Notes: a model not told the origin generated them from the sequence alone. A stretch of 64,000 nucleotides of DNA from Thermodesulfobacteriota bacterium (GCA_028278025.1 JANQFE010000024.1:11128-75127); one strand, 5' to 3'; positions 17,185-63,990 are shown, counted from the first letter of the stretch. A program made the numbers and translations.

Positions 17185-17252
17185 GATGCTGTTTTAACAT
17201 GACGATAGTCATGTTAAAAATCATGTCAATCCGGTTCATCCTGTCAGAAAAA
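17185..17252. repeat. Palindromic MITE/REP-like element, partial copy (family A, subtype 1)
   Basis: ttaacatgacgatagtcatgttaaaaatcatgtcaatccggttcatcctgtcagaaaaa matches the right half of the 20269 and 40132 copies. Confidence 0.6.
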
Positions 17253-17376
17253 GTTCCACTGAACAAAAAGGCTCCTCCCAACCCGTTCCGATTGAGAGAA
17301 GCCTTGGTAAACTCTTTCTGTACTATAACCACACCCCTCCATTTTTGATTAATGTCGCAAGAACCCCTTGTTAAGA

Positions 17377-18255
17377 CTACAGCAGCCCGTCCCGGCGCAG
17401 CCGCCCGACAATTTCAACCGAGGCCCGGCTGCGGTCCATCGTGTAGATATGAATCCCGGGCACACCCTTTTCGATCAGCTCAGCGCACTGCCGGGTTGCC
17501 AGGTCAATACCGAATTGCTCCAGGGTCTCCTTGTCATCAGGGAGCAGCTTTGCCAGGCCGTCAGTAATTTCCGGCGTAATGGTGGCCCCGCACAGTGTGG
17601 CCAGCATGTTCATCATCTTGATGCTGTAGATGGGCATCACGCCCGGCAGGATAGGCACCGCGATACCGATAGCCCTACACTGCTCCACAAAATCAAAAAA
17701 GTACTGATTATCATAGCAATAGTTTGCAATAATATACTCAGCCCCTTTTTCAACTTTCTGCTTGAGATAGGCCAGGTCCTGTTGCTTACTTTCAGCTTCA
17801 ATATGCCCCTCCGGGTAGCCTGCTGCTCCGATGCAAAAATCATAACGCTCTTTTATAAAGGAAATCAGGTCTAAAGCATAGGGCAGACTGTCCGGGTGGG
17901 GTGTGAAACCCTCCTGCTCCGGAGCATCCCCACGCACGGCAAATATCGTTTTGATCCCCATGTCGCGGTAACTGCCAAGCACTGCTGTAATGTCGTCAGG
18001 GCCCAGACCAAAGCAGGCAAAGTAGGCGATCACGTCCAGGCCCTTTGTGTTCATCAGGCTGTCCACTAGCTGACGCGATCCGTCCTGCGTAGAGCCCCCG
18101 GCTCCAAATGTCACGGACACAAAATCCGGCTTCAATGCAGCCAATTCATCAATAACCTGTTCCAGCTTTGCAGCGGCCTTTTCGCTGCGGGCCGGAAACA
18201 GCTCAAAAGAGATTGTCGGTTTTTGATTGTCCTGCCACAAATCAACTACACGCAT
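17377..18255 (-). CDS. metF: 5,10-methylenetetrahydrofolate reductase
   Basis: FSFELFPARS...VSVTFGAGGST...: MetF family motifs throughout; AAGGAG ribosome-binding site 5 nt before the ATG at 18255. Confidence 0.9.
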   Translation of the reverse strand: MRVVDLWQDNQKPTISFELFPARSEKAAAKLEQVIDELAALKPDFVSVTFGAGGSTQDGSRQLVDSLMNTKGLDVIAYFACFGLGPDDITAVLGSYRDMGIKTIFAVRGDAPEQEGFTPHPDSLPYALDLISFIKERYDFCIGAAGYPEGHIEAESKQQDLAYLKQKVEKGAEYIIANYCYDNQYFFDFVEQCRAIGIAVPILPGVMPIYSIKMMNMLATLCGATITPEITDGLAKLLPDDKETLEQFGIDLATRQCAELIEKGVPGIHIYTMDRSRASVEIVGRLRRDGLL

Positions 18256-18497
18256 AACTGCTCCTTTCATTGAATTCATAGAAGTAGTTAGTATAGTTAA
18301 ATAATATCCATGTGTCAATCAAACCGGCGTAACAAAACATTTTTCAGATTAAAAAAAGAGAGCCAGCTTCTTTTTTTATACCTGATATGGTATAAAATCA
18401 ATTAATCCCGTGAGTTGATAATTTCTTTAGCAAACATTTCATAACCAAAGACCCCTTTAGCTTTATTAAAAGTCAAAACAACATTACAGGTTACACT

Positions 18498-19529
18498 ATG
18501 AGAAAAGCACGCTTGGGAAGAACTAATCTTGAAGTCAGCCGCTGGGCGTTAGGCGGCATCCCGCTTTCTACTGTCATGGGCGGCAAAGATGAAGAGACAA
18601 TCAGCAGGGTCATGCACACCGCGCTTGATTACGGCATAAATTTTGTCGACACCTCACGGGTATACATGGATTCTGAGGCAAACATCGGCGAGGTCATGAA
18701 AACCAGGCGAAAAGAATGCATTATTGCCACTAAATCCCACAGCAGGCTCTATGATGAAGTCATGGCAGACCTGGAAGAAAGCCTGACCCAGCTGCAGACA
18801 GACAAGATAGAGCTTTACCAGATACATGAGCTTTACCCGGATGAGGCCGCCACAGTTATGGGCAAAGGCGGCGCCCTGGAAGCCTTTCAAAAAGCAAAAG
18901 ATCAGGGCATGATTGATTATATCGGATTGACCGGCCACCATGTAGATCTTCTCGCCGACCTGATGAAAACCGACGAGTTTGACACGGTCATGTTTCCCTT
19001 TAACGTGATTGAGCGCGAACCTGAAAAGGAGCTGCTGAACCTTGCTAAAAAAAAAGATATCGGGACCATCATAATGAAGCCCATTGCCGGCGGCGCAATC
19101 AGAAATATTGAAAAAGCGTTCCGGTTCTTCAACGGGTATCCGGTCGACACTATTCTGAATGGTGTTGCAACCCTCGAAGAACTGCGAGGCAACCTGAAAT
19201 GTGCTGAAAATAGTGTACCCCTGTCACCTGAAGAACTGGCCGACTTTGAAGCTGAGGTGGCACCGTTGGGCAAAGAGTTTTGCCGGCGCTGCAGCTACTG
19301 TATGCCCTGCCCCAATGATATCATTATTCCGGTAATGGTTCATGTCTACTGGCAGCAGATAAAAGACTGTAAGCTTGAGGACCTGTCACCCGAGAGAAAG
19401 CAAACCGGCCAGAACCTTACAATCTGGTGGCAGGCCTGCAGTGAGTGCGGTGAGTGTGAAAAAAAATGTCCCTATGATCTGCCAACAATAAAACGCAAAA
19501 ATGAATTGATGAAGATGTTTGAAGGGTAG
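18498..19529 (+). CDS. Aldo/keto reductase with a C-terminal 4Fe-4S ferredoxin-like domain
   Basis: AKR N-terminus (LGRTNLEVSRWALGG...GINFVDTSRVY); C-terminal CRRCSYCMPCP...CSECGECEKKCP cluster motifs. Confidence 0.8.
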   Translation: MRKARLGRTNLEVSRWALGGIPLSTVMGGKDEETISRVMHTALDYGINFVDTSRVYMDSEANIGEVMKTRRKECIIATKSHSRLYDEVMADLEESLTQLQTDKIELYQIHELYPDEAATVMGKGGALEAFQKAKDQGMIDYIGLTGHHVDLLADLMKTDEFDTVMFPFNVIEREPEKELLNLAKKKDIGTIIMKPIAGGAIRNIEKAFRFFNGYPVDTILNGVATLEELRGNLKCAENSVPLSPEELADFEAEVAPLGKEFCRRCSYCMPCPNDIIIPVMVHVYWQQIKDCKLEDLSPERKQTGQNLTIWWQACSECGECEKKCPYDLPTIKRKNELMKMFEG

Positions 19530-19546
19530 ACAGTCAGCCGTGAACT

Positions 19547-20182
19547 TCAGTCACTTCCTTTGTCTCTTTTGCGCAGCAAACCTGCCCAGGCCCGGGGCTG
19601 ACTCCCGGGCGGCAGTCCCAACGCCTCACGTTGTTCCTGGCTGGGCTCATCAAGCTTGGTTGCTATCAGGCATAAAATTTCAAAATAGGGCTCGGTAGCA
19701 TGGGTAATATCCCGGGCCGTGCGCCGGGGAGGACCCATCTCGGGTCCGTCACAGCTGCCGCTCACGCTCAGCCAGTGCCCGCCCGTGACCAGACACTCCG
19801 CTACAAGTCGAGCAAAACGCTCCCGCTGTGCTGCTTCATCAAACAAATGGAAACAGCCCAGGTCGAAAACAAATTCGAAATCATTGCCCGGTAGGGGTGC
19901 TTCAAAAAAATCCGCGTGGATAAATGTACATTTCTCAGCTCCACTCTTTGCACGAGCCAGTTTGAGAGCACTCTCGGACAGGTCTGTTGCGGTCACCTCA
20001 AAGCCCTGGTCGGCCAACCAGATGGCGTTTGATCCAGTACCGCAGCCCACATCCAAGGCCTTGCAGGGCCGTATAGGAGTTTCCCTGACCACCCGCACCA
20101 AGTGGCTGTCTGCCCCGCCGGTATCCCACGGCATAAAATCATCACGGTAGAGTTGTTCCCAGTCAGTCTTATTTTCACTCAT
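19547..20182 (-). CDS. Class I SAM-dependent methyltransferase (TPMT-like)
   Basis: Motif I LDVGCGTGSNAIWLADQGFEVTATDLS; ATG at 20182 (the track start is a TTG). Confidence 0.7.
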   Translation of the reverse strand: MSENKTDWEQLYRDDFMPWDTGGADSHLVRVVRETPIRPCKALDVGCGTGSNAIWLADQGFEVTATDLSESALKLARAKSGAEKCTFIHADFFEAPLPGNDFEFVFDLGCFHLFDEAAQRERFARLVAECLVTGGHWLSVSGSCDGPEMGPPRRTARDITHATEPYFEILCLIATKLDEPSQEQREALGLPPGSQPRAWAGLLRKRDKGSD

Positions 20183-20268
20183 ATGTATTGTCTCGTGGGG
20201 GCGGGAATGACAAAGCAATTAAATTTGTATATTTTTTTCTCAGCCCTCATGACTGATTAGTATTATTA

Positions 20269-20360
20269 GACCGGATTAATTGGATAAACAGGATTTTGTT
20301 TTCAACATGGCAGAAGCCATATTGAAAAATCATGTCAATCCCGTATATCCTGTCAAAAAT
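20269..20360. repeat. Palindromic MITE/REP-like element, full copy (family A, subtype 1)
   Basis: gaccggattaat...gataaacaggat.ttgttttcaa.atggc...gccatattgaaaaatcatgtcaatcccgtatatcctgtcaaaaat; the termini are inverted repeats (accggattaacatgat / atcatgtcaatccggt); ~90% identical to 40132..40222. Confidence 0.7.
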
Positions 20361-20432: not shown

Positions 20433-21362
20433 CTAACTCTCCAGCCCGCGTTTGATATCAGCGATGTCAATGTCAAGCAGGCAGGCAATTGCAGCAGAGC
20501 CTAAAACTGTCTGCAGCGTACAATCTTCGGGCAGTGTCATTGTAATATCCACAGTCTTTTTCCTGACCTTCAGGGTAAAGGTGGTGCGGCCGTCTTTTTG
20601 CCGGCGGACATTTTCGGCACATATATCCCCTTTCTTAAGGCCAAAGGTCAGCACACGGGCTTTGGTCACTTTTTTCAGCCCTGCCGATTGGGGATTATCG
20701 CTGTTCAGTATGGCGGTGTTGTTTTTATGCAGGTTTCTCAGAAGCTCGGCCTGCTCTTTACGGTCCTGCTTTTGAGTTCCGGTAATAAGAACCGCGGTGG
20801 GTTCACAGATGTCCGCGAGACGTTTAAGCTCACCGGGCTGATCCATTTCCAGGGCAAACAGCACAGCCTCATGTTCAGCATTTAACTTCATGAGTGTCAA
20901 GGGCAGTTCCTGCAGCCTGTTGCCGCTTAGCGGATTGGTAAGCACCCGGCGGTGCTCCCCGATAATTGAGTCTGCAATGCGGCCTGTTTCTGACACTCCA
21001 CTGCTTCCCGTGACAATCAAAAGCTCGGGGGTGAATTTATAGCGCCACAGGCTGGCAAGATTACCCAGGGCCGTCAGGGTATCATCCACTTCTATCAGGA
21101 TTTTACGTTTATATTTTTTCTGCAGGCCCGCGAGCACTCCGCTGTCACTGCCGACAAGGGTTGCCACCGCACCCTTGCTGAGGGCATCTTCTATAAAACG
21201 GTGTCCGTCCCTTCGGGTTCCTTTAAGCGGTACAAAGAGGCAGTTGGACGTTGTCTTGCGTGAATCAATACAGACAGACTCGATCATGGTCAGCCCAATC
21301 CCGCCGGCAAAGCGTCCTCCGGTAGCCTTTATGATTTCATTGGGTATTATTCTGATATGCAT
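20433..21362 (-). CDS. Mur ligase family protein (MurF-like N-terminal and central domains; P-loop lysine missing, C-terminal domain absent)
   Basis: IDSRKTTSNCLFVPLKGTRRDGHRFIEDA aligns with the MurF N-domain. The P-loop position reads VTGSSGVSETG rather than TGSxGKT, and the 309-aa protein lacks the C-terminal Mur ligase domain. Confidence 0.5.
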   Translation of the reverse strand: MHIRIIPNEIIKATGGRFAGGIGLTMIESVCIDSRKTTSNCLFVPLKGTRRDGHRFIEDALSKGAVATLVGSDSGVLAGLQKKYKRKILIEVDDTLTALGNLASLWRYKFTPELLIVTGSSGVSETGRIADSIIGEHRRVLTNPLSGNRLQELPLTLMKLNAEHEAVLFALEMDQPGELKRLADICEPTAVLITGTQKQDRKEQAELLRNLHKNNTAILNSDNPQSAGLKKVTKARVLTFGLKKGDICAENVRRQKDGRTTFTLKVRKKTVDITMTLPEDCTLQTVLGSAAIACLLDIDIADIKRGLES

Positions 21363-21529
21363 GCGTATCCTGTTACTATATTTACCGTTCAGTTGATTGT
21401 ATGAGGATTGCTGAATATTTGCAATATTTAATTAGGTCATGGTGTGAACTGTAATTCGTAATTCGTGATTAGCAGGTAAAAAACTGAGAACATAGTAAAA
21501 CACCAGTGAAGAAAGAACGCTTATCAACT

Positions 21530-27542: not shown

Positions 27543-27580
27543 ATTTACTTTTCTTTGGAGCAAGCAAAGAAAAGTAAATT
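27543..27580. terminator. Bidirectional terminator hairpin between convergent korB and the GAF kinase (member of a hairpin repeat family)
   Basis: 15-bp perfect stem aatttacttttctttg-gagcaagc-caaagaaaagtaaatt with T-runs on both sides. Confidence 0.55.
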
Positions 27581-27581
27581 T

Positions 27582-28832
27582 TTATGATGAAGGCTGTTCT
27601 GTGTGAAGGGGTAACCTGACGGTAAAGACCGAACCCTCATTTTCGCGGCTCTGCAATTCCAGTTCCCCACCGAACCGCTCAACTATCTGTTTTACAGAGG
27701 AAAGCCCTACACCGGTTCCCAGTATACGGTTTTTCTTGGCATTAGAGGCACGATAGAATTCCCGGAAGAGTTTCGGGATTTCGTCTTCGGGGATGCCCAT
27801 CCCTGTATCGGCGACCGTGAACAGTGCCCAGGGATCGCTACGCTGCAGGGTGACGGTAACCGAGCCTTCCTGGGTATATTTTACAGCATTGGATACCAGG
27901 TTTGATATAATCAGGTTCAAGCCTTTGGAGTCAAAACGTACCGGGACAGGCTGCTCCGGAAGCTCTACATTCATTATAAGTTTTTTATTTTCAGCCTGGT
28001 CACGGTACAGGTTGCAAACATTTATAGTCTCATTGGCAACATCAAGCACGCTAACATCTCCCAGAGGGCTGCCCGATTTGACCCTGGACAGTTCCAGGAT
28101 ATCCTTAATCAGATCAAGCAGCTGGCTCATGCGGGAACCGATTTTTGATGTTATAGCAAGGATATCGGGATCACCGGAGCGATCCATCTCAAGCACATCT
28201 ATCATCATCTTGGAGGCTGATACCGGGGACTTAAGCTCATGCACCATGATCTTCATAAATTCTGCCTTTTCCTGATCAAGCCGCTTGAGCGTGGAAATAT
28301 CGTGCAGCATGCGGGCATGGTAAAGCGTGTAGCCCACCAGCCGAGAAACACTCTGCAGCGGGAGAAGGTCTGATTCCTGAAACGGCGCCCCTTTGCTGTT
28401 CATAACCTGCGCAACCCCGATAAGCTCACCTTTAAAAAGAGCCGGTGCGCACATAACATCACGGGTCCGAAAACTGTTGTGCTCATCCCATGTCTTGTCA
28501 AACCGGATCTGCGGGTCAATGCCGCTCAGGTCACCATAGGCATCCTCAACCACAAAAGAACGGCCCGTGAGAGCACAGTACCCGGCCAGGGAGGCACGGC
28601 TGATGGGGATGCGGATACTGCGGGTAACATTACCGATGGTGGCGGCCGATTCCAGCTCCTGGGTTTCCCGGTTAACCAGGTACATAGTGGTGCGTTCTGC
28701 ATTAAGCGCCTGGCACACCACCTCGGCTGCTTCTCTGAGAACTTCAGGCAGCTCATCATCGCTTATCATGCGGTCATACAGGGTAAAAAAACGTTCATTG
28801 ACTATAAGACTGTTTTTTAGCATTTCGGTCAT
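27582..28832 (-). CDS. GAF-domain sensor histidine kinase
   Basis: GAF region (residues ~30-180), HisKA H-box HELKSPVSA, HATPase N/G boxes (LISNLVSNAVKYT...DTGMGIPE...GTGVGLS); GAGGAA ribosome-binding site. Confidence 0.85.
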   Translation of the reverse strand: MTEMLKNSLIVNERFFTLYDRMISDDELPEVLREAAEVVCQALNAERTTMYLVNRETQELESAATIGNVTRSIRIPISRASLAGYCALTGRSFVVEDAYGDLSGIDPQIRFDKTWDEHNSFRTRDVMCAPALFKGELIGVAQVMNSKGAPFQESDLLPLQSVSRLVGYTLYHARMLHDISTLKRLDQEKAEFMKIMVHELKSPVSASKMMIDVLEMDRSGDPDILAITSKIGSRMSQLLDLIKDILELSRVKSGSPLGDVSVLDVANETINVCNLYRDQAENKKLIMNVELPEQPVPVRFDSKGLNLIISNLVSNAVKYTQEGSVTVTLQRSDPWALFTVADTGMGIPEDEIPKLFREFYRASNAKKNRILGTGVGLSSVKQIVERFGGELELQSRENEGSVFTVRLPLHTEQPSS

Positions 28833-28937: not shown

Positions 28938-29160
28938 AACAACAGTTTGGTGAACTGTAAACAGTACTTAGTGATTCGTGAACTGTATTTTGTACTCTAT
29001 TAGTCTTTTGACCTTTTTTTGCCAGTACTCAGTACTTTTCTTTCAGCTTGACAGCCATCAGCTGTGTTTAGTGTTTGGTCTTTAGTCTCAACATAGATAA
29101 TGTAACTTTAGGCATTTTAGCTCGCTTTAATGTACTTTAGGCACTTTCTTTACCTACTCA
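28938..29160. repeat. AT-rich repeat-containing 5' region (family B: aacagtacttagtgattcgt...; actttaggcactttctttacct)
   Basis: A 17-mer, aacagtacttagtgatt, is identical at 37402. A 21-mer, ctttaggcactttctttacct, is identical at 49768. Related gtgattcgtaa motifs occur at 21450 and 47112. Confidence 0.5.
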
Positions 29161-31289: not shown

Positions 31290-31420
31290 TCTTGATGGTT
31301 TTTCCGGGTCCCATTACAACGCAGCCGAGTGCAGGGATTTCAGGCGTGTCGGGACAAGTTGCAGGGTGCCTTTTCTTTCGTTGTTTTTCTTTGGAACACG
31401 CAAAGAAAAAGTAAATTTTA
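31290..31420. repeat. Composite hairpin repeat (family D): modules cccattacaacgcagccgagtgcag / caagttgcagggtgcctttcttt / ttttctttgg-N-caaagaaaag
   Basis: The same three modules recur at 59860..60052. The terminal hairpin module also occurs at 27543..27580. Confidence 0.55.
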
Positions 31421-37375: not shown

Positions 37376-37545
37376 TTATTTAGTATTTGGTAAATTGTTA
37401 ACAGTACTTAGTGATTGGTTAATAGTTAATAGAGAACAGTGAGCTGTTAACAGTATTGAGTACTAAGCACTATTTTTTTGCTTATAAGCTTATCAGTTTA
37501 ATAGCCATTAGCTATGTTTAGTGGTTAAGCGCTCTAAAAAACCCG
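37376..37545. repeat. AT-rich repeat-containing intergenic region (family B)
   Basis: ttaacagtacttagtgattggttaatagttaatagagaacagtgagctgttaacagtattgagtactaag has internal direct and inverted repeats and shares a 17-mer with 28952. Confidence 0.5.
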
Positions 37546-46574: not shown

Positions 46575-46775
46575 TTATAAGGCCCTGACTTTTAATGCCT
46601 GCAGACCCTTGTTACCCTCGGTAACTTCAAAGGTTACCTCATCACCGTCTGACAGGCTTTTGAATCCCTGTCCTTCTATAGCGCTGTAGTGTACAAACAC
46701 ATCGCCATGCTCTTCAGATTCAATAAAGCCAAATCCTTTTTTTTCGTTAAACCATTTTACTTTGCCTTTACTCAT
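46575..46775 (-). CDS. Cold-shock protein, CspA family
   Basis: [16 protein letters not shown]...VFVHYSAI. Confidence 0.9.
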
Positions 46776-47340
46776 AACTTCTTACTCCTTAGGTTGTGTT
46801 AATAATACTGTAACATTCATACTGTTTTCCTTATTATATAAAAATGTTTGGTAAGTGCCGCCTGATCGTATAGTATTTCTTCCAAAAAAAAAACCCGCGG
46901 GATTATCAAAATCCCGTGGGCTCTAATATATTAAAACTTCCTGGATTTTAGACTAATACGGCACGATGCTTCTTTTTACTTAAGATAACATATACCTAAA
47001 AAAAAGACGTGTGTCAATGCATAATTTCCCCTGCCGAAGAAAAAGTCTTACTGTTTGTGAAAAACACTCCTGCAAAACAAAGCCGCCCTGCTAACCACTG
47101 GAAACCACTTTGTTGTTTGGTGATTCGTAATTAGAGAATCGTTAATAGATCGCTTTTCTTGGGGAGCATTCTGACTTTGTCAGAATTCGAGGAGCGCTGC
47201 GCTTCAGGTATGAGGGTTGTATCCTCAAGGCCAGAGGCCGATCTTTAAATCCCGCTTCAGCAGTATGATCCTCAAACTCAACCAGCAATCCCGCCTGTGG
47301 CGGGACCTATGCTCCGCTCCGGCCAGCAACAAATAAAACC

Positions 47341-47394
47341 AGTTCCGCTTCACACTTTACGCTTCTGGTTTGACGTTATTAATCCAGTATCCAG
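47341..47394. repeat. ~54-bp direct repeat copy 1 (family C)
   Basis: gttccgcttcacactttacgcttctggtttgacgttattaatccagtatccag is ~95% identical to 49657..49711. Confidence 0.65.
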
Positions 47395-49594: not shown

Positions 49595-49656
49595 GCCACC
49601 CGAACCACCTCACGGTGTGGTATTTGGTTTTTGGCAAATCGTTAACAGATCGCCTA

Positions 49657-49711
49657 GTTCCCGCTTCACACTTTACGCTTCTTGTTTGACGTTATTAATC
49701 CAGTATCTAGC
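49657..49711. repeat. ~54-bp direct repeat copy 2 (family C)
   Basis: gttcccgcttcacactttacgcttcttgtttgacgttattaatccagtatctag. Confidence 0.65.
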
Positions 49712-49995
49712 ATCCCCGACCCTATCGAGATCTTCGCTGCGCTCCGACAAGCAACTGACAACTGATGTTTTTATAACTTTAGGCACTTTCTTTACCTTTC
49801 TCATTACTACTTGTTTAAGCTTAGTAATTTTTGAACCCTCAAGGGTCAGGTTATACATAAGCCCTTTATTTGAGGCCACAACAGCAATAGTCGGCTTATT
49901 GAGCGTTTCTGTGTCCAGGGTACCGCCGGCACCGAATGTAGCTATGGCAACTGAGCCTTCAGCACCGACCTTCCAGCCTTCGCTTTCACGAAAAT
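49673..49995 (-). pseudogene. 3' fragment of a SYLF/Ysc84-domain gene with no start codon, abutting repeat elements
   Basis: The frame reads ...EGWKVGAEGSVAIATFGAGGTLDTETLNKPTIAVVASNKGLMYNLTLEGSKITKL (SYLF-like G-rich beta motifs) and opens directly after a TAG with no in-frame start. The C-terminus is encoded by repeat family C. A MITE copy lies immediately upstream. Confidence 0.3.
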
Positions 49996-50010
49996 GTAAC
50001 TACTTTTTCT

Positions 50011-50120
50011 GACCGGATTTACAGGATTAACATGATGTTTCAAAAGGGCTGACGCCATGTTGAAAACAGCAATCCTGTACAACTCTGAGTAAAGTCGCAG
50101 GATTATTCCTGTCTAACAGA
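50011..50120. repeat. Palindromic MITE/REP-like element (family A, subtype 2)
   Basis: gaccggatttacaggattaacatgatgtttcaaaagggctgacgccatgttgaaaacagcaatcctgtac...cctgtctaacag; shares both arms with the 58310 copy. Confidence 0.6.
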
Positions 50121-50315: not shown

Positions 50316-53300
50316 ATGCATAAAAAACAAACAAAATGTTTTTTTCAGAAAGTTGTTTTTTTAGCGTTTTTTACTGTTTTTTTGATCTTTATGCTGCTTC
50401 CGGCTTCTTTCAGCTTTGCCCGGCAAACCATTAAAAAAAGCCGGGACATAACCGCACCGGCTGCCCAGCGTGACCCTACGACAACTACCACGACCAGGGA
50501 ATTAACCACTACCACGATCGGCCGTGAGACTACCACCACAACAACAACCAGGGAATTAAGCACCACGACGTCTGTACCCGATACTACTACCACTATTGTA
50601 TTTGATACCTCCACTACGACCTCGGTAGCAACACTGCCGACCACAACAACAACTGCGTCCCGTGATACCTCTACTACCACAACTGCGGTCCTTGATACCA
50701 CCACGACAACTACCGCGGCCGTGGCAGCGGCCACAGATTGCCAGTCAGCCAAAGATAACGCTCAGATCATCTGCTGCACGGATGCTGTATCCGCTCCTGT
50801 TCCTGACAACCTCGACTATGTATCACTGACAAACTGCGAAACCGGTGAAGTTGAGTCGTTTGCCTGTGTCCATGATCCCGCTACCGGATCAGAGCTGGCT
50901 ACCGAGACCACCGTGACTGAAGGGGCCGCTGAGGATTATTCCAGCCCTGAATGTCAGGCAGCCCTTGATGATGTTGCAGACTACTGTGCTGAGCAAGATG
51001 AAAACTGGCATGAGGATCATACCTATACCCTTGAATGCGAATCCGTAAAAACCGCGGTTTACCCGCTCTGTGATGACCTGCAGATGATCAGCGAAATCGG
51101 TTGTCCCGAATGGCCGGGCCTGGAAGTACTGCAACGTATTTTTGAAGGCACCACCGAAGGCCCGCCGATCCAGATACCGATTCCCACGCCTGAGGAAACG
51201 CCGTTTGAAGAACTGGAGAGCGACGCTGCCGCAAAACCCGGCGCCGACATGGATCAGTTTACCCAGCTTATGGATAATGAGACCGCTTTGAAAGAAAAGG
51301 AAGACCAGAAGCTCAGGATCGAAATACCGGGTAATTTCATACGCTATATGATGGCACGGACGTTCTTTAAAAAAGCCCTTGAAATGATGGATGGCCAGGA
51401 TGGTTTTGAATGCGAGCCGGATGAGCTGGAGTGCTCCATCGATCCCCTTGAGCTTGCTGATTTATCTCCCTTTTTAACGATTGATAAAGAGAACTTTAAG
51501 CTGTCAGCCAAAAAAGCCTCCTATGGCTACCGATTATACGACCTGTGGGCCGGTGAGGAGGATTCTGTATACATACAGTGGTCCGGGGAAATCAGGGTTG
51601 AAACCAGCTCTAAAATGAAGCTTGACTTGAAGGATAATGCTACCCTGGCGGTTATACCGCTGCATGAACCCGACGCGGCAAACGGATACTCAACCGATGT
51701 TGAGGTCTCTGAGCGCTGGCTTGACCGGGCACAGTTGGTACTCGAGCTGCCTGATGACCGGTGCAGTCCGCTCCAGGGTAACCAATATAACGATAAGTAC
51801 ATTACCTGGACGACACCCTTTTCATGCAACTGCACGGGAAATGACGCCGGTAAGACCAACTATTGTGTTGTGGACCCGTATGAACGGGAGGAATCAGAAA
51901 TTAACATAGATGATCTTGAAAGCGCGGGTGCTGATCTGGTTGAAGTCGTCTGCACCGATCCGCTCACAACGGCTGAAGGTGAAAACCTGTCCGAATATCT
52001 TTCTAACCAGGGATATTCCGATGAGTTTGTTGCCCAGGTCATCACCACGCTGCGGGATTTTGGCTGTGCCGGCCGGACCGTTACCCGTGTAGCTACCGAG
52101 GAGGGTTTGATAACCTCGGCCATCGGTCTTGAGTTTACCAATATTATGGACCTCGGCGCACTGCAGGCCACCATGGAGCCCGGTATTTTCACGATCAAAT
52201 TTCCGTTTTTCGGTACTGCCATTCAGTATCTCGAAAAAACCTGGTGGGGCTGGCTGTTCAGCTGGATTATCGAGATCATTCAAAAACTGCTTGAAGCTAT
52301 TATCAGTGCCAAGGGAACACTTCTCTTAAATGTCCTTGTCAATACGGCAAGTGCTTCCCTGGGCGACCAGGAAATGCTGCTCCACGGCGTGATCAGCCAC
52401 AGCCTGGGCACAGATGACAGTGATCCTGATATAAGCATCGGGCTGCGGCGGCTGGCAACGGATGCGCCTGAAGTGAAGATCACCAATTTCGGTTTTTCCT
52501 GGGAAACGCCCTCATGTGACAGTATGGACGGCCCCGAGGACCTCCTGAACCTGATTACCTGTCCATTTGAAATCCTGGTCAATCTGCTGAAATATGTGCT
52601 GTCCCCCATCACCAATCTGCTGCTCACCCTGGCAGATCATATGTTTGATCTGATGAATTTTATTAATGATGAAATTTCAGGTGTCGTTATTAATGAAGTG
52701 GCTAAAATAGAAGACAGTAACCAGATAGCCGCGCTCATCAAAGGCACGGTTGTCTCAACCAGCACCAATCCCTATTATCTGGCCGAAGAATACGCTGATC
52801 AGGAACAGCTGGGCCAGCTGCTGGGAGTTGTGACGGATTCCCTGCCCGTTCTGCAGGATCTGGCCAAAACCATTCCTCCGCCGCTGGTGCAGCTTTGTCT
52901 GCTGGCTGGAAACAGCGACACTGCCGGCGGCGTTGCCTGCCAGATTGTCAAGATTTTTGCCGGCGGCTTTGATGTCGACTCCGGCAGCAAGGGGGTCAAT
53001 GAGGTCCGGGTCGATATACCGCGCCTGGGCGCCAAAACACATTACCGCAGCATGGCTGATTTTGAAGAACTGTCAAGTATGCTCAATGACGACCTGCCGC
53101 CGGTACGGTTCTGTCTGCCGGGAGACAATCCTCCCGGGTCCGAGGTATATGATCAGGATGACCTGCTGATCCTGACCGATTTTAATGAAATTGATATCTC
53201 CGATGAGGAAAGCGCCAAACCGCATGACTGGCGAACCCAGTCGGCCCTGTTCCTGGATCTCAAGGCCCACGGACAGCTCTCCATCCCGGGCCTGGCATCA

Positions 53301-54044
53301 CTGCTGATAAAACCCACCGAGCGTACAAACCTGCTCATTAACGAGGTTTTTGTCTGCAAGGATAATGAGTACTGCAACCCCGCTAAAAATTATATCAGAG
53401 ACCGCGCAGAGCTCGCGCTTTGCTCCATGGCTTCAGACATCTGGTACTCCCTGGCCTTTAGCGAAGAGGAGCAGCAATACTATAACCTGGCCGCGGACAT
53501 GGAGCCCGAGCTTATCGCCACGCTGATGGTATTTGCTGAACCAGTGGAAGGCGATCTGCCGGATGATTTCAGTGAAGATCTGGAAGCGGTGGCCGAGTGG
53601 CTCTCGCAATGCCAGGAAGCGTTGAGTGAGCTGGAATGGGCGCTGCCGGGACCGTCAATCTGCGAGGACCTGGCCGGAAGCAGTGCGAAAACTTTAAGTG
53701 CGCTCTACCAATTCCGTGATACCGTGCTGAGCACAGATGAAAAAGGTATATTCTACCGCACGGCCTATTACCGCCTGCGGACCGACCTGGTGGCTCTTTT
53801 TGACGCCCACCCGCATCTGTTAAACCGCACGGCAACATTCATTAACCGGGTAGCGCCCCGGCTGCAGACTGCCGGTCCGCAAGAGATCATTGTCCTGTCA
53901 GCCGGTGATCTTGCTGAATGCCGCTCACTGCTACATGATATGATTAAAGTGTCAAACGGGCCGCTGAAGCAGACCCTTACCCGGCTGCGAACCGATCTGG
54001 AAACGGGCACCCTGCTGCCTGCTCTGGGCATCCGCGTTGAGTAA
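50316..54044 (+). CDS. Very large (1242 aa) secreted or surface protein with N-terminal signal-anchor, a ~100-aa Thr-rich repeat region and a large Cys-containing domain of unknown function
   Basis: Long intact ORF with a GAAAGG ribosome-binding site and signal/TM segment (VVFLAFFTVFLIFMLL); TTTTTRELTTTTIGRETTTTTTTRELSTTT repeats; no recognisable catalytic motif. Confidence 0.7.
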   Translation: MHKKQTKCFFQKVVFLAFFTVFLIFMLLPASFSFARQTIKKSRDITAPAAQRDPTTTTTTRELTTTTIGRETTTTTTTRELSTTTSVPDTTTTIVFDTSTTTSVATLPTTTTTASRDTSTTTTAVLDTTTTTTAAVAAATDCQSAKDNAQIICCTDAVSAPVPDNLDYVSLTNCETGEVESFACVHDPATGSELATETTVTEGAAEDYSSPECQAALDDVADYCAEQDENWHEDHTYTLECESVKTAVYPLCDDLQMISEIGCPEWPGLEVLQRIFEGTTEGPPIQIPIPTPEETPFEELESDAAAKPGADMDQFTQLMDNETALKEKEDQKLRIEIPGNFIRYMMARTFFKKALEMMDGQDGFECEPDELECSIDPLELADLSPFLTIDKENFKLSAKKASYGYRLYDLWAGEEDSVYIQWSGEIRVETSSKMKLDLKDNATLAVIPLHEPDAANGYSTDVEVSERWLDRAQLVLELPDDRCSPLQGNQYNDKYITWTTPFSCNCTGNDAGKTNYCVVDPYEREESEINIDDLESAGADLVEVVCTDPLTTAEGENLSEYLSNQGYSDEFVAQVITTLRDFGCAGRTVTRVATEEGLITSAIGLEFTNIMDLGALQATMEPGIFTIKFPFFGTAIQYLEKTWWGWLFSWIIEIIQKLLEAIISAKGTLLLNVLVNTASASLGDQEMLLHGVISHSLGTDDSDPDISIGLRRLATDAPEVKITNFGFSWETPSCDSMDGPEDLLNLITCPFEILVNLLKYVLSPITNLLLTLADHMFDLMNFINDEISGVVINEVAKIEDSNQIAALIKGTVVSTSTNPYYLAEEYADQEQLGQLLGVVTDSLPVLQDLAKTIPPPLVQLCLLAGNSDTAGGVACQIVKIFAGGFDVDSGSKGVNEVRVDIPRLGAKTHYRSMADFEELSSMLNDDLPPVRFCLPGDNPPGSEVYDQDDLLILTDFNEIDISDEESAKPHDWRTQSALFLDLKAHGQLSIPGLASLLIKPTERTNLLINEVFVCKDNEYCNPAKNYIRDRAELALCSMASDIWYSLAFSEEEQQYYNLAADMEPELIATLMVFAEPVEGDLPDDFSEDLEAVAEWLSQCQEALSELEWALPGPSICEDLAGSSAKTLSALYQFRDTVLSTDEKGIFYRTAYYRLRTDLVALFDAHPHLLNRTATFINRVAPRLQTAGPQEIIVLSAGDLAECRSLLHDMIKVSNGPLKQTLTRLRTDLETGTLLPALGIRVE

Positions 54045-57099: not shown

Positions 57100-57966
57100 T
57101 TAGAACAGGTATTGCTGAACAATTTTTGGTATGCGCAGAAAGACACTGTTTGGTGAGATATGTCGCTTGCCTGCATACGCTTCATACTTTCTTAAAATCT
57201 CCAGATGATTCTCAACATAGGTACTGATATCATCAGGATGAACTTTTTTGTAATCGCATTCCTTAACGACTGTCGCCTTAATCTCTTCATCTGTGATTTC
57301 AATGGAGAGTTTTTGCAAAAGCTGCTTGAAGTAGAAGAATCTATTATTGCAGAAATCTTCATAATACAGGGGAAAAGCATCAACACCAGCGCACCGTAAG
57401 TCCTGGAAAAATCCCTTTCGATAGGCAATTCTTTCTTCACACTTTCTGATTATTCTCTTTAAAACCATCCAGTTTACTTTTATTTTAGGTAAATCATTGA
57501 TGGTGACATCATAAAACTGCAGATGCCCGCTGTTGCCTTTCCCATTGCCGTGATATTTCGACAATGCCCATCTCAGCACATCCTGCCTGATGAGAACAAA
57601 AGCAGTAACATCATATTTTTTCAGCAGGGAAAAAATTTCTGCATTCCACTGCTTTCTTAACCTCATCTTGAATCCGTGACTGGTGTGCGGCGCAAACTTA
57701 AATTTACAAACACTATTGTATGTGGAATAGATTGCGTTAAGTGCTGCAAGATGGTTTTCTGATGTGTCGTAGATCATTGACAGACATTTTAAAAAATCTT
57801 CTTTTGTAATGTCTTTGCCTAAGGCCCCTTGATTATTAAGAAACATATGTCTGTCAAACGGTTCAATAAAATCAGAGATAATTTCGGTTTGCTTGAAATT
57901 ATTCAAAATGCTGACAAGGGCGCACGAGCCTTCTTTTTCGGAATTAAAAATAATAAAGTTTTTCAT
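57100..57966 (-). CDS. Sulfotransferase-family protein (Stf0-like)
   Basis: 5'-PSB-like FIIFNSEKEGSCAL and 3'-PB-like RQDVLRWALS motifs. Confidence 0.45.
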   Translation of the reverse strand: MKNFIIFNSEKEGSCALVSILNNFKQTEIISDFIEPFDRHMFLNNQGALGKDITKEDFLKCLSMIYDTSENHLAALNAIYSTYNSVCKFKFAPHTSHGFKMRLRKQWNAEIFSLLKKYDVTAFVLIRQDVLRWALSKYHGNGKGNSGHLQFYDVTINDLPKIKVNWMVLKRIIRKCEERIAYRKGFFQDLRCAGVDAFPLYYEDFCNNRFFYFKQLLQKLSIEITDEEIKATVVKECDYKKVHPDDISTYVENHLEILRKYEAYAGKRHISPNSVFLRIPKIVQQYLF

Positions 57967-58309
57967 GCATAATCCTGCAAAATGAGGAACATGATCCTTT
58001 TATGCACGGCAAGACAACAGCCCCCCCGATGCATCGGAGTGGCTTTACTAGGCCTTTTGTCGCCGGATCCCGCTTTATTACGGGACGCCGGGGGTTTTTA
58101 TGAAGACAATAAACCTATTCTAATATGCCGGGGTTATGTTTTTGTTAGGATAGATTTAGGTTTATGTTAATTAAGGTGTTGAGGAGAAAATAAGAATTTG
58201 AGTAGTGAGTGCTGAAAGAGGGAGGCTGATAGAAATCCAGTGGTTTTCATGAAACGTGATTATTGATATTCGGAAAGCAATGGAGCCGGGCATAGGTAGT
58301 GAACTGTTT

Positions 58310-58406
58310 TTCTGACTGGATTTACCGGATTGACATGATTTTTCAATATGGCTTGAGCCATATTGAAAATAACATCCCGTTCATCCGGTTAATCCTGTCT
58401 AACAAT
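58310..58406. repeat. Palindromic MITE/REP-like element (family A, subtype 2) overlapping the 3' end of the PHP gene
   Basis: ctgactggatttaccggattgacatgatttttcaatatggcttgagccatattgaaaataacatcccgttcatccggttaatcctgtctaaca is a long imperfect palindrome. Confidence 0.65.
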
Positions 58407-58780
58407 AAAAACCCGGGACCTCGTACTTCAGAAATGCAAAAGGAGGGTTTAATATCAATGCCGAGTATGTGATACTTCTCATGATCATTGGTAATCTCCG
58501 AGCCGGGCAGGAGCAGCATATTATACTGTTCCCACGCTTTTCCGGCACCGGCCCATAGCTGCTGCAAATACTCATGAAAATCTTCCTGGAGCACGTAATA
58601 GGGCCGCCCGTTAGCAAGCCGGTTGTTTTCCCGCGTGCGCCTGTCGAAAGTATGGTCTGTAATGGCTATGGCATCAAAACCGTTTGCTCCGTAGAGATCA
58701 ATTACTTCATCCAGCGATAACAGACCGTCGCTATGATTCGTATGGATGTGAAAATCGCACAGCAGCCATTCGCCGAACAT
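58343..58780 (-). CDS. PHP-domain metal-dependent phosphoesterase; the 3' end is encoded by a repeat element
   Basis: LCDFHIHTNHSDG...AIAITDHT PHP motifs; the last ~25 codons fall inside the palindromic repeat at 58310..58406. Confidence 0.65.
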   Translation of the reverse strand: MFGEWLLCDFHIHTNHSDGLLSLDEVIDLYGANGFDAIAITDHTFDRRTRENNRLANGRPYYVLQEDFHEYLQQLWAGAGKAWEQYNMLLLPGSEITNDHEKYHILGIDIKPSFCISEVRGPGFLLLDRINRMNGMLFSIWLKPY

Positions 58781-59859: not shown

Positions 59860-60052
59860 TTTTGATCCCATTGCAACGCAGCCGAGTGCAGTGGTTGCTC
59901 TGCGGATCAAGGAGGCAAACTGTTTGAGCGTAGTGAGTTTTTGCCTCCGCCGCAGGCAAGCACTGCATGAGGGTATCCGTCTTTGGCGGGCAAGTTGCAG
60001 GGTGGCCTTTCTTTTGCATACTTTTCTTTGGCCAAACAAAGAAAAGTATGGG
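59860..60052. repeat. Composite hairpin repeat (family D), longer copy with an internal insertion
   Basis: cccattgcaacgcagccgagtgcag ... caagttgcagggtggcctttctttt ... catacttttctttggccaaacaaagaaaagtatg (14-bp stem). Confidence 0.55.
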
Positions 60053-60244: not shown

Positions 60245-63200
60245 ATGAAAAAAAGTTTCTCTACTATAATCGCAGTCCTGTTATGTGTGCTGCTGCCGGC
60301 AACATACGTCTTCGGACAACCCATATCAGCTGCAAAAATAGCCGGCTTTGCAATTGAAGATGCCGAGATTGCAACCTATTCCGCTGAACACCAGGCTGTG
60401 TACATCTCTGCCAAGTCAACCATAGAAATCATCAGCATTGCTGACCCTGCCGCCCCTGATGTAAGCAGCAAGATCAGCATTGACATTTCAGCGTACGGAA
60501 GCGCAGTAAACAGCGTTGCGGTCTATGGCGATCTTGTGGCCGCAGCAGTTGAAAATGAAGATGCACAGGCCAACGGCAGCGTTGTCTTCTTTGATCATGC
60601 CGGCACCTTCCTGGCCGGTTTCGATGCCGGGGCCCTGCCCGATATGGTCACGTTCACACCCGACGGGAACTATGTGCTCGTGGCAAACGAAGGCGAGCCC
60701 AATGATGAATACACGCTTGATCCGGAAGGCAGCCTTACCGTTATTGACATCTCCCAGGGCTTGGCGCAGGCACAGGTTACCCAGGTCGGATTCACATCCT
60801 TCAACAGCAGTAAAGACGACCTCATTGCTGAAGGCATACGTATTTTCGGTCCCGGGGCAACCGTGGCACAGGATTTGGAACCTGAATATATTGCTGTTTC
60901 TGATGATTCACATACCGCCTGGGTCACACTCCAGGAAAATAACGCTGTTGCAGAGCTTGATATTGCCACTAAAACTGTTAGCGCCATCCATCCGCTTGGT
61001 TATAAAAGTTACGACTCCCGGAGCAGGGGGATTGATGCAAGCGATAAAGACGGCGCTATCAATATCCGGCGCTACCCGGTCCTGGGGATGTACCAGCCCG
61101 ATGCAATTGCGGCTTTCAATCACGCAGGACGTACCTACCTGATAACAGCAAATGAGGGCGATGCCCGGGATTACGACGGCTTCAGCGAAGAGGCCCGTGT
61201 TGAAGACCTGACCCTTGATCCTGAGGCTTTTCCTGAAGCCGGAGCGCTGCAGGCAGCGGATGTGCTGGGACGACTGAAAACGTCAACAGTCATGGGCGAT
61301 ACCGACAGTGATGGCGATAATGATCTGATTTACAGTTACGGCGCACGGTCCTTTTCCGTTTGGAAGCCTCACAAAGGTACATTGAAACAACAATATGACA
61401 GCGGAAACAAACTGGCCAAAATCACAGCAGCACTTCATCCTGAAGCATTCAACTGCAATGACGGAATAATAAGCGAATTCGACAAGCGCAGCGATGACAA
61501 AGGCATTGAGCCGGAAGGGGTCACCGTCGGTACAATCGGCGATAGACGCTATGCCTTCATCGGCCTTGAGCGTGGTCTCGGCGGTATCATGATATTTGAT
61601 ATCACTAACCCGCGGGAGCCCGCCTTTGTCACCTGGGTACTCTCCAATAACGGCAGCGGAGCAGACGGGAACGACATTGCACCCGAGGGTATAGCGTTCA
61701 TCGCTCCGGAAAGCAGTCCTAACGGCAAAGCGCTGCTGGTCGGTACGTTTGAAGAAAGCGGCTCGGTAGCAATCTATGAACTGTCATTGCAACAGGACAC
61801 GCAGATATCCATTGCTCCGCAGGCCGGAACTATCGGCACCTCCCTCATCATAACGGGCCACAATTTCGGCAGCAAATCCGGCAAGGTACGGATCGGCAAT
61901 AAAAGCGCAAAAACAATCCTGTGGACTGACACGCTGATTCAGTGCACACTCTTTAATCAGATGAAGCCCGGCACATACGATGTAACCATAACACCTTACA
62001 AAGCTGAACCGATCCTTTTCAGTGATTATTATACTGTCAGTCTTCCCGAGGTATCTACCATCGATCCCCCGCAGGGGGCTGCTGCCGGAGAATCCGTTAT
62101 GCTGACCGGAAAGTATTTCGGTTCGGCAAAGGCCAAACTGAGAGTGTATCTATACGACGGCTGCTCAAAAACGATTGCACCAGACCTGACGTATACAATG
62201 GACCCGCTTACCGGCGAAAGCACCTGTACGTTCACTATGCCCGATCTGCCGCCCAGCACTTATGATCTCAAGCTACGCACCTTGATTGGATGGTCGGAAC
62301 CGATCCCGTACGAATGCATCAACCCTGATTACCAGGACCTGCGCACCATCTCTGTCGTCAGCACCAATGATTTTCACGGTGCCCTTGTCGGCAGGGTACA
62401 CTCCTGGTCAAACGGTGATGCGGTTGGAGGTGCCGACTGGCTGGCAGGCTACCTGAACATTATCCGTGATGAAAATCCCAAAGGCTATCTGTTTGTTGAC
62501 GCCGGAGATATGATGCAGGGTACGCTCACCTCAAACTACTTTTATGGTGAACCGACCATTGACGTGTTCAACGAAATGGACCTGAAAGCTACCGCACTGG
62601 GCAATCACGAGTTTGACTGGGGATTGAGTATACTGGCTGACCGCATGGCGCAGGCTGGTTTCCCGTTTATATCCGCCAACATTATGTACCGCGATCATAA
62701 AGACCGTTTGCGGCACTGGTGCACCCCCTACATCATTAAGAAGATCAACGGTATTAAGGTCGGCATTATCGGACTCACCACTACCGACACTCCCATTATT
62801 ACCAATCCGGTTCATGTGGCCGACCTGGAGTTCGTTGAACCCGCTGCTGCCGTAACCGGCCTTATCCCCGAACTGCAACAAAAGGGGGTAACCATGGTTG
62901 TTGTCGTTGCTCACATGGGCGGGTTCTGGAACAGCAGCAGTGCAGCAGTGGAAGGAGAAGTTGCCGACCTGGCCTGTGCGCTTGATGCCGATGATGTTGA
63001 TCTTATTGTCTCAGGGCATACCCACTCACGCATTGACGAGGTGATTTGTGACATACCGGTCGTCCAGGCCTATTCAGGCGGTACGGCCTTTGCCCGGGTC
63101 GACGTTAGCGTGGATGTGTACAATAAAAGGGTTGTCGGATATGACATGAACGAATTCCCAACCACAACATACCAGACATACAGCGGCAGTCCGGCAACCT

Positions 63201-63871
63201 ATGAGGGAGTTACGGTTTCTCCGGACCCGAACGTTGCTGCAATTGTCGGCTTGTATGAAGCCCAGATAGACGATATCAAAAACCAGGTGCTGGGCCAAAC
63301 AACAGCCCCAATTACCCGCCAGTACAGATATGAGTCCGTCATGGGCGACTGGGTCACGGACATCATGCGCACCTATGAGTCCGGTATTGACTTCGCGCTC
63401 ACCAACAGCGGCGGCCTGCGTACGGATATTGATGCCGGCGACATTACCTTTGGTGAGGTCTACGAAGCACTTCCCTTTGACAACTCGCTGGTTGTGGTAG
63501 AGCTTGACGGAAATGAAGTACGTCAGGTGTTGGAAGAAGGTGTCACCGGTGCCCACGGTGTTGTCCAGGTGTCAGGCCTGCAGTTTACCTTCGATTATGA
63601 CGCACCCGCCGGAAGCCGCATTATCGGAGATATTATTGACCTGAACACCAGCTTGCCGATCGATCCGGTCGCCTTGTACCAGGTTGCCGTAAATGACTTC
63701 ATGGCAAACGGCGGTGACGGCTATGCTACCCTGGCTGCCAACCCGCAAACAAATACCTTCTTTCTGGTGCGGGATATCGTTGTCAGCTGGATCATGGCCA
63801 ACTCACCCTTCACAGCACCTGACCCGACGGTTGAGCAGCGTATGACTGCCTTAGGCACACCACCATCATAA
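60245..63871 (+). CDS. Large secreted multidomain protein: N-terminal beta-propeller-like domain, IPT/TIG domains and a C-terminal calcineurin-like 5'-nucleotidase/phosphodiesterase (UshA-like)
   Basis: AAGGAGAAGAA ribosome-binding site, signal peptide; IPT/TIG patterns (GTSLIITGHNFGSKSG...YDVTITP; GESVMLTGKYFGSAKA); metallophosphatase motifs (STNDFHG, GNHEFD, VVAHMG, SGHTHS); 5'-nucleotidase C-domain. Confidence 0.8.
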   Translation: MKKSFSTIIAVLLCVLLPATYVFGQPISAAKIAGFAIEDAEIATYSAEHQAVYISAKSTIEIISIADPAAPDVSSKISIDISAYGSAVNSVAVYGDLVAAAVENEDAQANGSVVFFDHAGTFLAGFDAGALPDMVTFTPDGNYVLVANEGEPNDEYTLDPEGSLTVIDISQGLAQAQVTQVGFTSFNSSKDDLIAEGIRIFGPGATVAQDLEPEYIAVSDDSHTAWVTLQENNAVAELDIATKTVSAIHPLGYKSYDSRSRGIDASDKDGAINIRRYPVLGMYQPDAIAAFNHAGRTYLITANEGDARDYDGFSEEARVEDLTLDPEAFPEAGALQAADVLGRLKTSTVMGDTDSDGDNDLIYSYGARSFSVWKPHKGTLKQQYDSGNKLAKITAALHPEAFNCNDGIISEFDKRSDDKGIEPEGVTVGTIGDRRYAFIGLERGLGGIMIFDITNPREPAFVTWVLSNNGSGADGNDIAPEGIAFIAPESSPNGKALLVGTFEESGSVAIYELSLQQDTQISIAPQAGTIGTSLIITGHNFGSKSGKVRIGNKSAKTILWTDTLIQCTLFNQMKPGTYDVTITPYKAEPILFSDYYTVSLPEVSTIDPPQGAAAGESVMLTGKYFGSAKAKLRVYLYDGCSKTIAPDLTYTMDPLTGESTCTFTMPDLPPSTYDLKLRTLIGWSEPIPYECINPDYQDLRTISVVSTNDFHGALVGRVHSWSNGDAVGGADWLAGYLNIIRDENPKGYLFVDAGDMMQGTLTSNYFYGEPTIDVFNEMDLKATALGNHEFDWGLSILADRMAQAGFPFISANIMYRDHKDRLRHWCTPYIIKKINGIKVGIIGLTTTDTPIITNPVHVADLEFVEPAAAVTGLIPELQQKGVTMVVVVAHMGGFWNSSSAAVEGEVADLACALDADDVDLIVSGHTHSRIDEVICDIPVVQAYSGGTAFARVDVSVDVYNKRVVGYDMNEFPTTTYQTYSGSPATYEGVTVSPDPNVAAIVGLYEAQIDDIKNQVLGQTTAPITRQYRYESVMGDWVTDIMRTYESGIDFALTNSGGLRTDIDAGDITFGEVYEALPFDNSLVVVELDGNEVRQVLEEGVTGAHGVVQVSGLQFTFDYDAPAGSRIIGDIIDLNTSLPIDPVALYQVAVNDFMANGGDGYATLAANPQTNTFFLVRDIVVSWIMANSPFTAPDPTVEQRMTALGTPPS

Positions 63872-63888
63872 ACGTTTTCAATAACAAT

Positions 63889-63926
63889 AACGGAGCAGGG
63901 TTTCATCTAACCCTGCTCCGTTTTAT
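63889..63926 (+). terminator. Rho-independent terminator
   Basis: cggagcaggg-tttcatctaa-ccctgctccg followed by ttttatt. Confidence 0.7.
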
Positions 63927-63957
63927 TCGTTACCCGGCACTCAGAACTCAACACTTA

Positions 63958-63990
63958 TCTATCATCCTGTCTAACAAGTGTCTGCCTCAT
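63958..63990. repeat. Partial family A element at the window edge
   Basis: tatcatcctgtctaacaag matches the 3' arm of subtype 2 (atcctgtctaaca). Confidence 0.35.

Follow-up and report, generated by a model that had tools for sequence, protein, structure and literature searches.

Miniature inverted-repeat transposable elements (MITEs), of which the Correia/NEMIS elements of Neisseria are an example, are small, non-coding, multi-copy intergenic sequences with terminal inverted repeats; Correia/NEMIS elements may also carry promoter-like hexamers, form RNase III-type hairpins and have a longer, gene-carrying relative with the same ends, and the Correia terminal repeat contains GGATTAAC. Repetitive extragenic palindromes (REPs) and REPINs are numerous intergenic hairpins of about 100 nt, formed of two inverted halves and lacking target-site duplications, whose spread is thought to be due to a single-copy enzyme gene, RAYT, flanked by the same repeats. 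Several of these features recur in a family of palindromic elements in a 64,000-nt stretch of DNA from a Thermodesulfobacteriota bacterium (GCA_028278025.1 JANQFE010000024.1:11128-75127), hereafter the window, whose own coordinates we use, with element limits drawn from a T-run to TAA. The elements are real, dispersed, non-coding foldback palindromes. On balance they are probably gene-less derivatives of a small cassette in which the same kind of inverted arms enclose a GxxExxY nuclease gene; this nuclease may mobilise them in trans, and one of their arms is promoter-like.

The window contains four full copies of 94-113 nt (c2 to c5), one half copy (c1) and one 14-nt end fragment (c6), and sequence reading and repeat detection both place them where the initial annotation had reported palindromic copies. 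A 17-nt core, GGATTRACATGATNTTT, occurs five times with at most 2 mismatches, against 0.06 occurrences expected from shuffles, and the five larger copies are also tied together by repeat detection (families D2-D4, pairs I1-I5). The c6 fragment is identical to the end of c5; we estimate the chance expectation at about 5e-4 for a given 14-mer in 128 kb. Read on its own strand, every copy opens with TTTTT(C)TGAC and closes with GTCTAA, so the two subtypes described initially are a single asymmetric element seen in two orientations: c2 and c3 (minus strand, 'cctgtcaaaaa') are the same element as c4 and c5 (plus strand, 'cctgtctaaca'), reversed.

The inverted arms are 35-45 nt long and run GAC...GTC. 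Within an arm, 9-nt units follow one another in tandem (TTTTTCTGAC, nGGATTnAC, nGGATTrAC and ATGATTTTT) and are mirrored in the opposite arm as ATCCnGT units, with the arm consensus TTTTT-GAC-AGGATTkAC-AGGATTrAC-ATGATTTTT. In the alignment the 5' arm and apex are near-invariant and the 3' arm is looser; all five copies have at least two tandem nGGAT(T)nAC units ending in ATGAT-T-run, mirrored, with the outer flank TT[T/A]GAC. A small-peptide reading (AGGA-N5-ATG, then Met-Ile-Phe) was rejected, as frames differ between copies and the one in c4 runs into a stop after 6 codons.

The five copies occupy five intergenic sites spaced 3-20 kb apart among housekeeping genes. Their neighbour genes differ and their flanks are unrelated, so they did not arise by local segmental duplication. 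Nothing beyond the copies sharing one window speaks for such a duplication or for chance, and the number of core matches and the relatives in many phyla described below also stand against it; we give this explanation next to no weight. That the family extends clearly beyond the window bears out the initial view of a dispersed element.

Arms were found in metagenome-assembled genomes (MAGs) of at least seven phyla. An arm 20-mer matched 13 GTDB genomes once each, where by our estimate about 9 would be expected by chance, and the same unit-built arms are present in 8 of these 13 genomes. A second 20-mer, ACAGGATTAACATGATGTTT, exact in c4, matched at least 120 metagenome contigs. Of the eight GTDB genomes, four have inverted arm pairs (Heliomicrobium, Leptospiraceae, Pyrinomonadaceae and Blastocatellia), three have a single arm (Pelotomaculum, a Latescibacterota MAG with variant units and a Deltaproteobacteria MAG), and the Chloroflexia genome has direct repeats; at some loci (L113, L004) arms stand in direct tandem. 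Plasmid BLAST returned three Spirosoma plasmids and one weak Thiodictyon match, and further plasmid BLAST weak matches in Rhizobium, Persicobacter and Vibrio; on Spirosoma oryzicola plasmids the arms lie between glycoside-hydrolase genes and between cobalamin genes. Viral contigs gave no matches, and BLAST against a phage collection gave no match. In literature searches the arm strings returned unrelated primer matches only, and no description of these elements was found in the literature on GxxExxY, PF13366, foldback or intervening sequences.

Over 171 distinct arms the outer flank reads T-n-T-T-[T/A]-GAC. Distances between paired arms form a continuum of 50 to about 320 nt. The centre can be as short as a few nt or as long as about 300 nt; one centre is a 200-nt stretch that forms hairpins of its own. 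The same arms are found in composite elements of 250-330 nt (L069 1657-1907, L077 2481-2733, L043, L133, L035, L068 and L129), which have conserved internal hairpins, with CGGAA/CAGAA loops toward the 5' side and the complements toward the 3' side; they also carry a GCCGCC-loop-GGCGGC hairpin and have no Rfam match. In a Blastocatellia MAG (L014, about 4700-4900) a GGAT-type element is nested in a longer palindrome of CACGAATT units (TTAGCCACGAATTAACAC...GTGTTAATTCGTGGCTAA).

GxxExxY proteins (TIGR04256, PF13366) recur among the open reading frames (ORFs) adjoining arms. Using a local profile, we found a GxxExxY gene between or beside arms in 13 of about 135 arm loci, and most GxxExxY genes at arm loci have arms on both sides, the stop codon often lying within TGAC. 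For three GxxExxY protein clusters 23 places were fetched. In all 23, similarity begins at TTTGACAGGATAACAGGATAGACATGAT and the left arm stops 49-52 nt short of the ATG; the right arm starts 23-25 nt past the stop codon in 20 of the 23, similarity ending at ATCATGTCAATCCTGTTTATCCTGTC. These places represent four unrelated contexts (dinB/holB, a sigma-54 activator, FecR/TonB and UvrD/RecD), and one exact GxxExxY protein is present in two of them. Similarity between cassettes starts and stops at the arm ends, and no target-site duplication was found at cassette boundaries in the four contexts. Some cassettes have an extra outer inverted pair (AATAGTTCAC / GTGAACTATT-like). A fifth context lies in a Dehalococcoidia MAG, where the gene sits inside an iron-sulfur-protein operon and the arms around it are a shorter version. 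The arm-gene-arm unit thus keeps fixed boundaries in differing contexts and is spread across phyla, and one gene-less element, described below, retains a fossil of the gene.

GxxExxY is a PDDEXK_3 / PD-(D/E)XK nuclease (PF13366) with a Cas4-like fold, 123 aa long in the cassette, and its residues D66, E76 and K78 are invariant. No GxxExxY relatives were found by sequence in the PDB, the relation being visible by fold only. An earlier survey of the superfamily records multiple transfers between divisions for PF13366 and lists its function as unknown (PMC3424549). For the protein of one cassette (L053) there are over 120 clusters with 84-100% identity; the named members are from Planctomycetota/Brocadiaceae, Deltaproteobacteria/Desulfobacteraceae and Thermodesulfobacteriota, with Dehalococcoidia members at 80% identity, and proteins 80-89% identical occur across MAGs labelled Planctomycetota, Deltaproteobacteria and Dehalococcoidia. 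Contigs encoding L053-type proteins are mostly shorter than 3 kb, as expected of repeats that break assemblies. Among PLSDB plasmids, tblastn detected 8 GxxExxY genes, and inverted arms flank or adjoin all of the five examined (33-56% identical); in four of the five these arms consist of clear short units with other sequences (CACAGAG, GGATT, CGCGGAT and CACGGATTCG). A Spirosoma oryzicola plasmid (NZ_CP089542.1; L015 700-1300) has a 97-aa GIY-YIG nuclease gene flanked by another kind of hairpin repeat (GTCATCC...GGATGAC), a second small nuclease gene bracketed by palindromes on the same replicon.

We interpret the window copies as putative gene-less, MITE-like foldback members of a very widespread inverted-arm superfamily whose centre would be free to vary and whose full-length relatives would carry one small GxxExxY / PDDEXK_3 nuclease gene between the same arms. 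Such cassette units would travel from phylum to phylum and among unrelated sites in chromosomes, and the window copies would have arisen from them by loss of the centre. Two loci support this derivation: a gene-less 259-nt element (L087 7035-7294) still has 24 N-terminal GxxExxY codons (E 2e-8 over 288 translated frames), and the cassette ORF at L076 is split. Copying or maintenance could be provided in trans by a GxxExxY nuclease recognising the GGAT units or their hairpin or cruciform, and a route dependent on this nuclease may leave no target-site duplication.

Several observations weigh against this interpretation. The local profile found no GxxExxY gene in the 64-kb window, we know of no demonstrated activity for GxxExxY, and a gene fossil was seen in only one of 48 gene-less elements. 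No cassette with exactly window-type arms is known, and the subfamily with the TTTTCAATATGGC apex had no matches in JGI metagenome contigs. Other cargo is found between arms, for example a VapC-like PIN gene with a partner (L092); arms also flank ordinary housekeeping genes, and many GxxExxY genes lie between two complete hairpins and not between single arms. The hairpins could instead insert beside GxxExxY genes. A pair of filled and empty sites was not found, so that only its distribution suggests that the short form is mobile; loci of the nearest relatives, identified by a 65-69% identical permease, yielded no element, no synteny and no empty site. Finally, the promoter match described below leaves the conserved GGAT cores of the spacer unexplained.

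The L092 arms are 1.1 kb apart (9935-11038) and enclose a 155-aa PIN/VapC-like ORF and a 119-aa partner, which are toxin-antitoxin-like by our reading. At L075 a VapC gene (NCBIfam-confirmed) adjoins an arm. From these two loci, cargo other than GxxExxY exists.

A REP/REPIN family moved by a RAYT (IS200/IS605-type TnpA_REP) encoded elsewhere in the genome would resemble the window elements in size, palindromic shape, intergenic position and the absence of target-site duplication. However, the arms start T-run-GAC-nGGAT and have no GT[AG]G head, and their sequence is common to several phyla whereas REPs are lineage-specific. In the approximately 135 arm loci examined, no Y1 transposase was seen beside arms, and the gene found between them is GxxExxY. 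No transposase, Y1 included, was found among 38 window ORFs scanned against Pfam, a scan that covered the larger ORFs and those adjoining copies. We regard a RAYT origin as very improbable. Of the initial 'MITE/REP-like' annotation, the MITE-like part holds, as the elements are small, non-coding, palindromic and at differing sites, and the REP/RAYT part is not supported; neither is the proposed link to a TnpA_REP transposase, the gene travelling with the arms elsewhere being GxxExxY. The target-site duplications that the initial annotation had raised were not found at c2 to c5, where no direct word longer than 4 nt is shared near both boundaries.

Only tentatively, and leaning against it ourselves, do we raise the wider possibility that arm-GxxExxY-arm is an unrecognised class of mobile element, a cassette of about 0.5 kb whose sole gene is a minimal Cas4-like PD-(D/E)XK nuclease and which would spread among intergenic chromosomal sites and across phyla without a target-site duplication, with the window hairpins as non-autonomous derivatives that are numerous in environmental bacteria. 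If this is true, a MITE-like repeat would be the visible trace of a very common, phylum-crossing cassette, the large orphan family PF13366/TIGR04256 would gain a testable role, a frequent cause of broken metagenome assemblies would be accounted for, and there would be a route of mobility independent of DDE, HUH, serine and tyrosine enzymes.

The individual copies differ in completeness and setting. The half copy c1 (17192-17252, minus strand) consists of a 5' arm (17220-17252, minus strand; TTTTTCTGACAGGATGAACCGGATTGACATGAT) and a variant apical palindrome (17192-17219, minus strand; AACATGAC/GTCATGTT) that is self-complementary (compensated), without a 3' arm, and lies between convergent genes for a flavodoxin-domain protein (plus strand) and MTHFR (minus strand). 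Of the full copies c2 (20266-20359, minus strand, 94 nt) and c3 (40129-40224, minus strand, 96 nt), the former begins 74 nt past the stop codon of a Mur-ligase-like gene (20433-21362, minus strand) and ends 48 nt ahead of the start of a methyltransferase gene (19547-20218, minus strand). The latter begins 29 nt past the stop codon of a permease-Usp gene (40253-42553, minus strand), and the ATG of the longest GYD ORF (39797-40129, minus strand) lies inside its last bases, GTCTAATG. The full copy c4 (50004-50116, plus strand, 113 nt) has an insertion of about 20 nt within its 3' arm. Its TGAC supplies the TGA that closes a repeat-built ORF (49617-50012), and its end is 200 nt upstream of ORF 50316-54044 (plus strand).

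The best hairpin is that of c5 (58307-58402, plus strand, 96 nt; -40.7 kcal/mol, z -8.0). Its 5' arm (58307-58343, plus strand) illustrates the order of parts, a T-run, the -35-like hexamer CTGACT, a 16-nt spacer of GGAT units and the extended -10-like site TGnCATGAT, and its apical palindrome (58340-58369, plus strand), TTTTCAATATGGC-nnnn-GCCATATTGAAAA, is specific to the subfamily of this organism. A PHP-domain gene is truncated at c5: the frame of the truncated ORF (58343-58780, minus strand) enters the element and stops inside it, only the N-terminal approximately 110 residues of the protein are present, and the remainder of the gene was not found across c5 (57966-58306). The lone terminal fragment c6 (63964-63977, plus strand; ATCCTGTCTAACAA) is only the 3' end of an arm and begins 93 nt past the stop codon of gene 60245-63871, after that gene's own hairpin. 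The window as a whole has a G+C content of 48% and comes from an uncultured anaerobe in which Shine-Dalgarno sites are used; among the window genes are those for aldehyde and pyruvate ferredoxin oxidoreductases, for radical-SAM enzymes and for a TonB receptor.

In RNA folding c2, c3 and c5 form long hairpins (-34 to -41 kcal/mol; z-scores between -6.2 and -8.0), in agreement with the initial suggestion of stable hairpins if transcribed, and c1 and c4 give z-scores of about -3. The best pairing of c3 is offset by one unit, as expected with interchangeable units. Arms pair with arms of unrelated elements at -0.81 kcal/mol per nt versus -0.86 with their own partner, the rank of the own partner among arm pairings is near uniform, and no covariation was found between arms within elements. 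Pairing of the arms thus stems from the units that all arms have in common and not from each element keeping a pairing of its own. This favours recognition of the unit sequence, or else recent common descent, over a selected RNA structure. Rfam 15 gave no window matches at the gathering threshold, and in E-value mode c4 and c5 gave noise only; related loci had unrelated Rfam matches only. An intrinsic terminator was considered and rejected: the T-run precedes the hairpin, A or TAA follows it on either strand, and a terminator scan makes no call.

These results bear on the possibility that the elements are host RNA elements, in which a hairpin, co-transcribed with the upstream gene, shields the 3' end of an mRNA or separates cistrons through RNase III cleavage, as do REP/BIME (bacterial interspersed mosaic element) hairpins and rRNA intervening sequences. 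The folds are very stable, c1 to c4 each lie in the sense direction just downstream of a stop codon, and a G-U pair in the apical stem of c2 suits pairing on the sense strand. Such a role is hard to reconcile with the lack of an Rfam match and of covariation between arms, with the missing U-tract after the hairpin, hence no terminator, and with the existence of single arms and of arms in direct tandem (L113, L004). In the wider family, moreover, asymmetric elements have no consistent orientation to neighbour genes (6 versus 4). We consider this explanation quite unlikely. As derivatives of nuclease cassettes, the elements would still fold into a hairpin of about 40 base pairs in read-through transcripts.

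The 5' arms of c2 and c3 read TTGACA, 16 nt, TGnCATGAT, matching 10 of 12 sigma-70 positions plus the extended TG. Those of c1 (9 of 12) and of c4 and c5 (8 of 12 each) match less fully, and the TG of the extended -10 is present in four of the five copies; 3' arms have no sigma-70 geometry. The left arm of the cassettes has TTGACA, 15 nt and CATGAT, and downstream of these come a Shine-Dalgarno site and the ATG. By consensus match only, the 5' arm resembles a sigma-70 promoter aimed at the downstream gene. A consensus-like promoter would be needed for expression in many phyla, which may explain part of the cross-phylum conservation of the arms. The 5' arm may double as an inward-facing sigma-70-type promoter that would drive the nuclease gene in the cassette and, in gene-less copies, could drive the next host gene. 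Downstream of c2, c3 and c4 a same-strand gene starts no more than about 200 nt from the element end, the ATG at c3 lying within the element itself. With a consensus-like -35 and extended -10 in their arms, gene-less copies could rewire the expression of neighbours in many uncultured lineages.

The same features might be expected if the arms were binding-site arrays for a host DNA-binding protein, or portable promoters, and the link to GxxExxY were secondary. Conservation of the unit sequence and not of element-specific pairing would fit, as would a 5' arm that stays near-invariant while the 3' arm decays, the sigma-70-like geometry with its critical -10 bases and TG, the same-strand gene starts beyond c2, c3 and c4, and the sense position of c1 to c4 downstream of stop codons. 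However, orientation in the wider family is inconsistent, c1 points at a convergent gene, a promoter needs neither GGAT cores in its spacer nor a mirrored second arm, and no candidate binding protein is known. We judge a host-regulatory origin unlikely. DnaA box, Fur box, IHF, sigma-54, dif/Xer and CsrA-sponge readings were rejected, since they misfit in spacing or key bases.

Other repeats are present in the window. A second short-unit family (GTGAACTGT, AACAGTACTTAGTGATT) occurs at 21440-21476, 28943-28992, 37383-37470, 47109-47145 and 49627-49655, mostly upstream of gene starts, and a unit of it, GTAGTGAACTG, abuts the 5' end of c5; the cassette outer flanks in L146, L150 and L053 have a similar AATAGTTCAC / AGCTGAACTATTAC pair. 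A 50-nt repeat is found at 47345-47394 and 49661-49710 (96% identical), with a weaker third copy at 37529-37578, and an exact 22-mer occurs twice (29134-29155 and 49776-49797). The 131-aa 'ORF' closed by c4 (49617-50012) has no Pfam match and is built largely from these 50-nt and 22-mer repeats, so it is probably not a gene. An A/T-rich hairpin repeat (TTTTCTTTGG...CAAAGAAAA) lies at 27549-27584, 31352-31420 and 59988-60045, a 58-nt context being common to two of these. Downstream of c4, the 1242-aa ORF 50316-54044, which has no Pfam match, contains a 54-nt tandem repeat at 50469-50576 (2 copies, 72% identical). Paralogous 80-nt stretches at 43327-43407 and 46737-46816 (78-83% identical) mark the starts of small RRM / cold-shock-type genes that are neighbours, and RRM, CSD, HSP20, Usp and GYD genes cluster near these stretches.

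Compared with known systems, the window elements depart from REP/REPIN-RAYT families in having no GTAG head, no Y1 (HUH) transposase seen and 9-mer units with a GGAT core, and in arms that are not lineage-specific as REPs are. The intervening sequences of 23S rRNA (Leptospira, Coxiella S23p) are likewise small selfish units with paired inverted ends and a small ORF in the loop, and are described as tolerated inside transcripts (PMC4990558); the elements described here lie outside rRNA, and their cargo is GxxExxY and not S23p. Integron attC sites are also imperfect palindromes beside single small genes, including toxin-antitoxin genes, and GTCTAAC fits the RYYYAAC core. In the present elements, however, the genes lie inside the palindrome, and there is no cassette array and no integrase. 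An attC reading was rejected, as the core-like GTCTAAC is at the 3' end only, which is the wrong end, the 5' end is T-run-GAC, and there is no ordered GTTRRRY partner.

In architecture the elements are analogous to the Foldback (FB) elements of Drosophila and other eukaryotes, which also have long inverted arms of short tandem subrepeats in variable number and a variable centre, empty or coding; the analogy is one of architecture only, between different domains of life and size scales, with no common sequence or enzyme. Correia elements duplicate TA, whereas the window elements have no target-site duplication. Unlike those of MITEs, the arms here are arrays of 9-bp units, variable in unit number and common in sequence to several phyla, and the longer relative encodes a 123-aa PD-(D/E)XK nuclease and not a DDE transposase. 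By the features that define MITEs, the window elements have terminal inverted repeats, are small (MITEs being under about 300 bp) and non-coding and occur at several unrelated sites; as for an autonomous relative, the same arms bracket GxxExxY, a protein that is no known transposase and was not seen in this organism, in five contexts.

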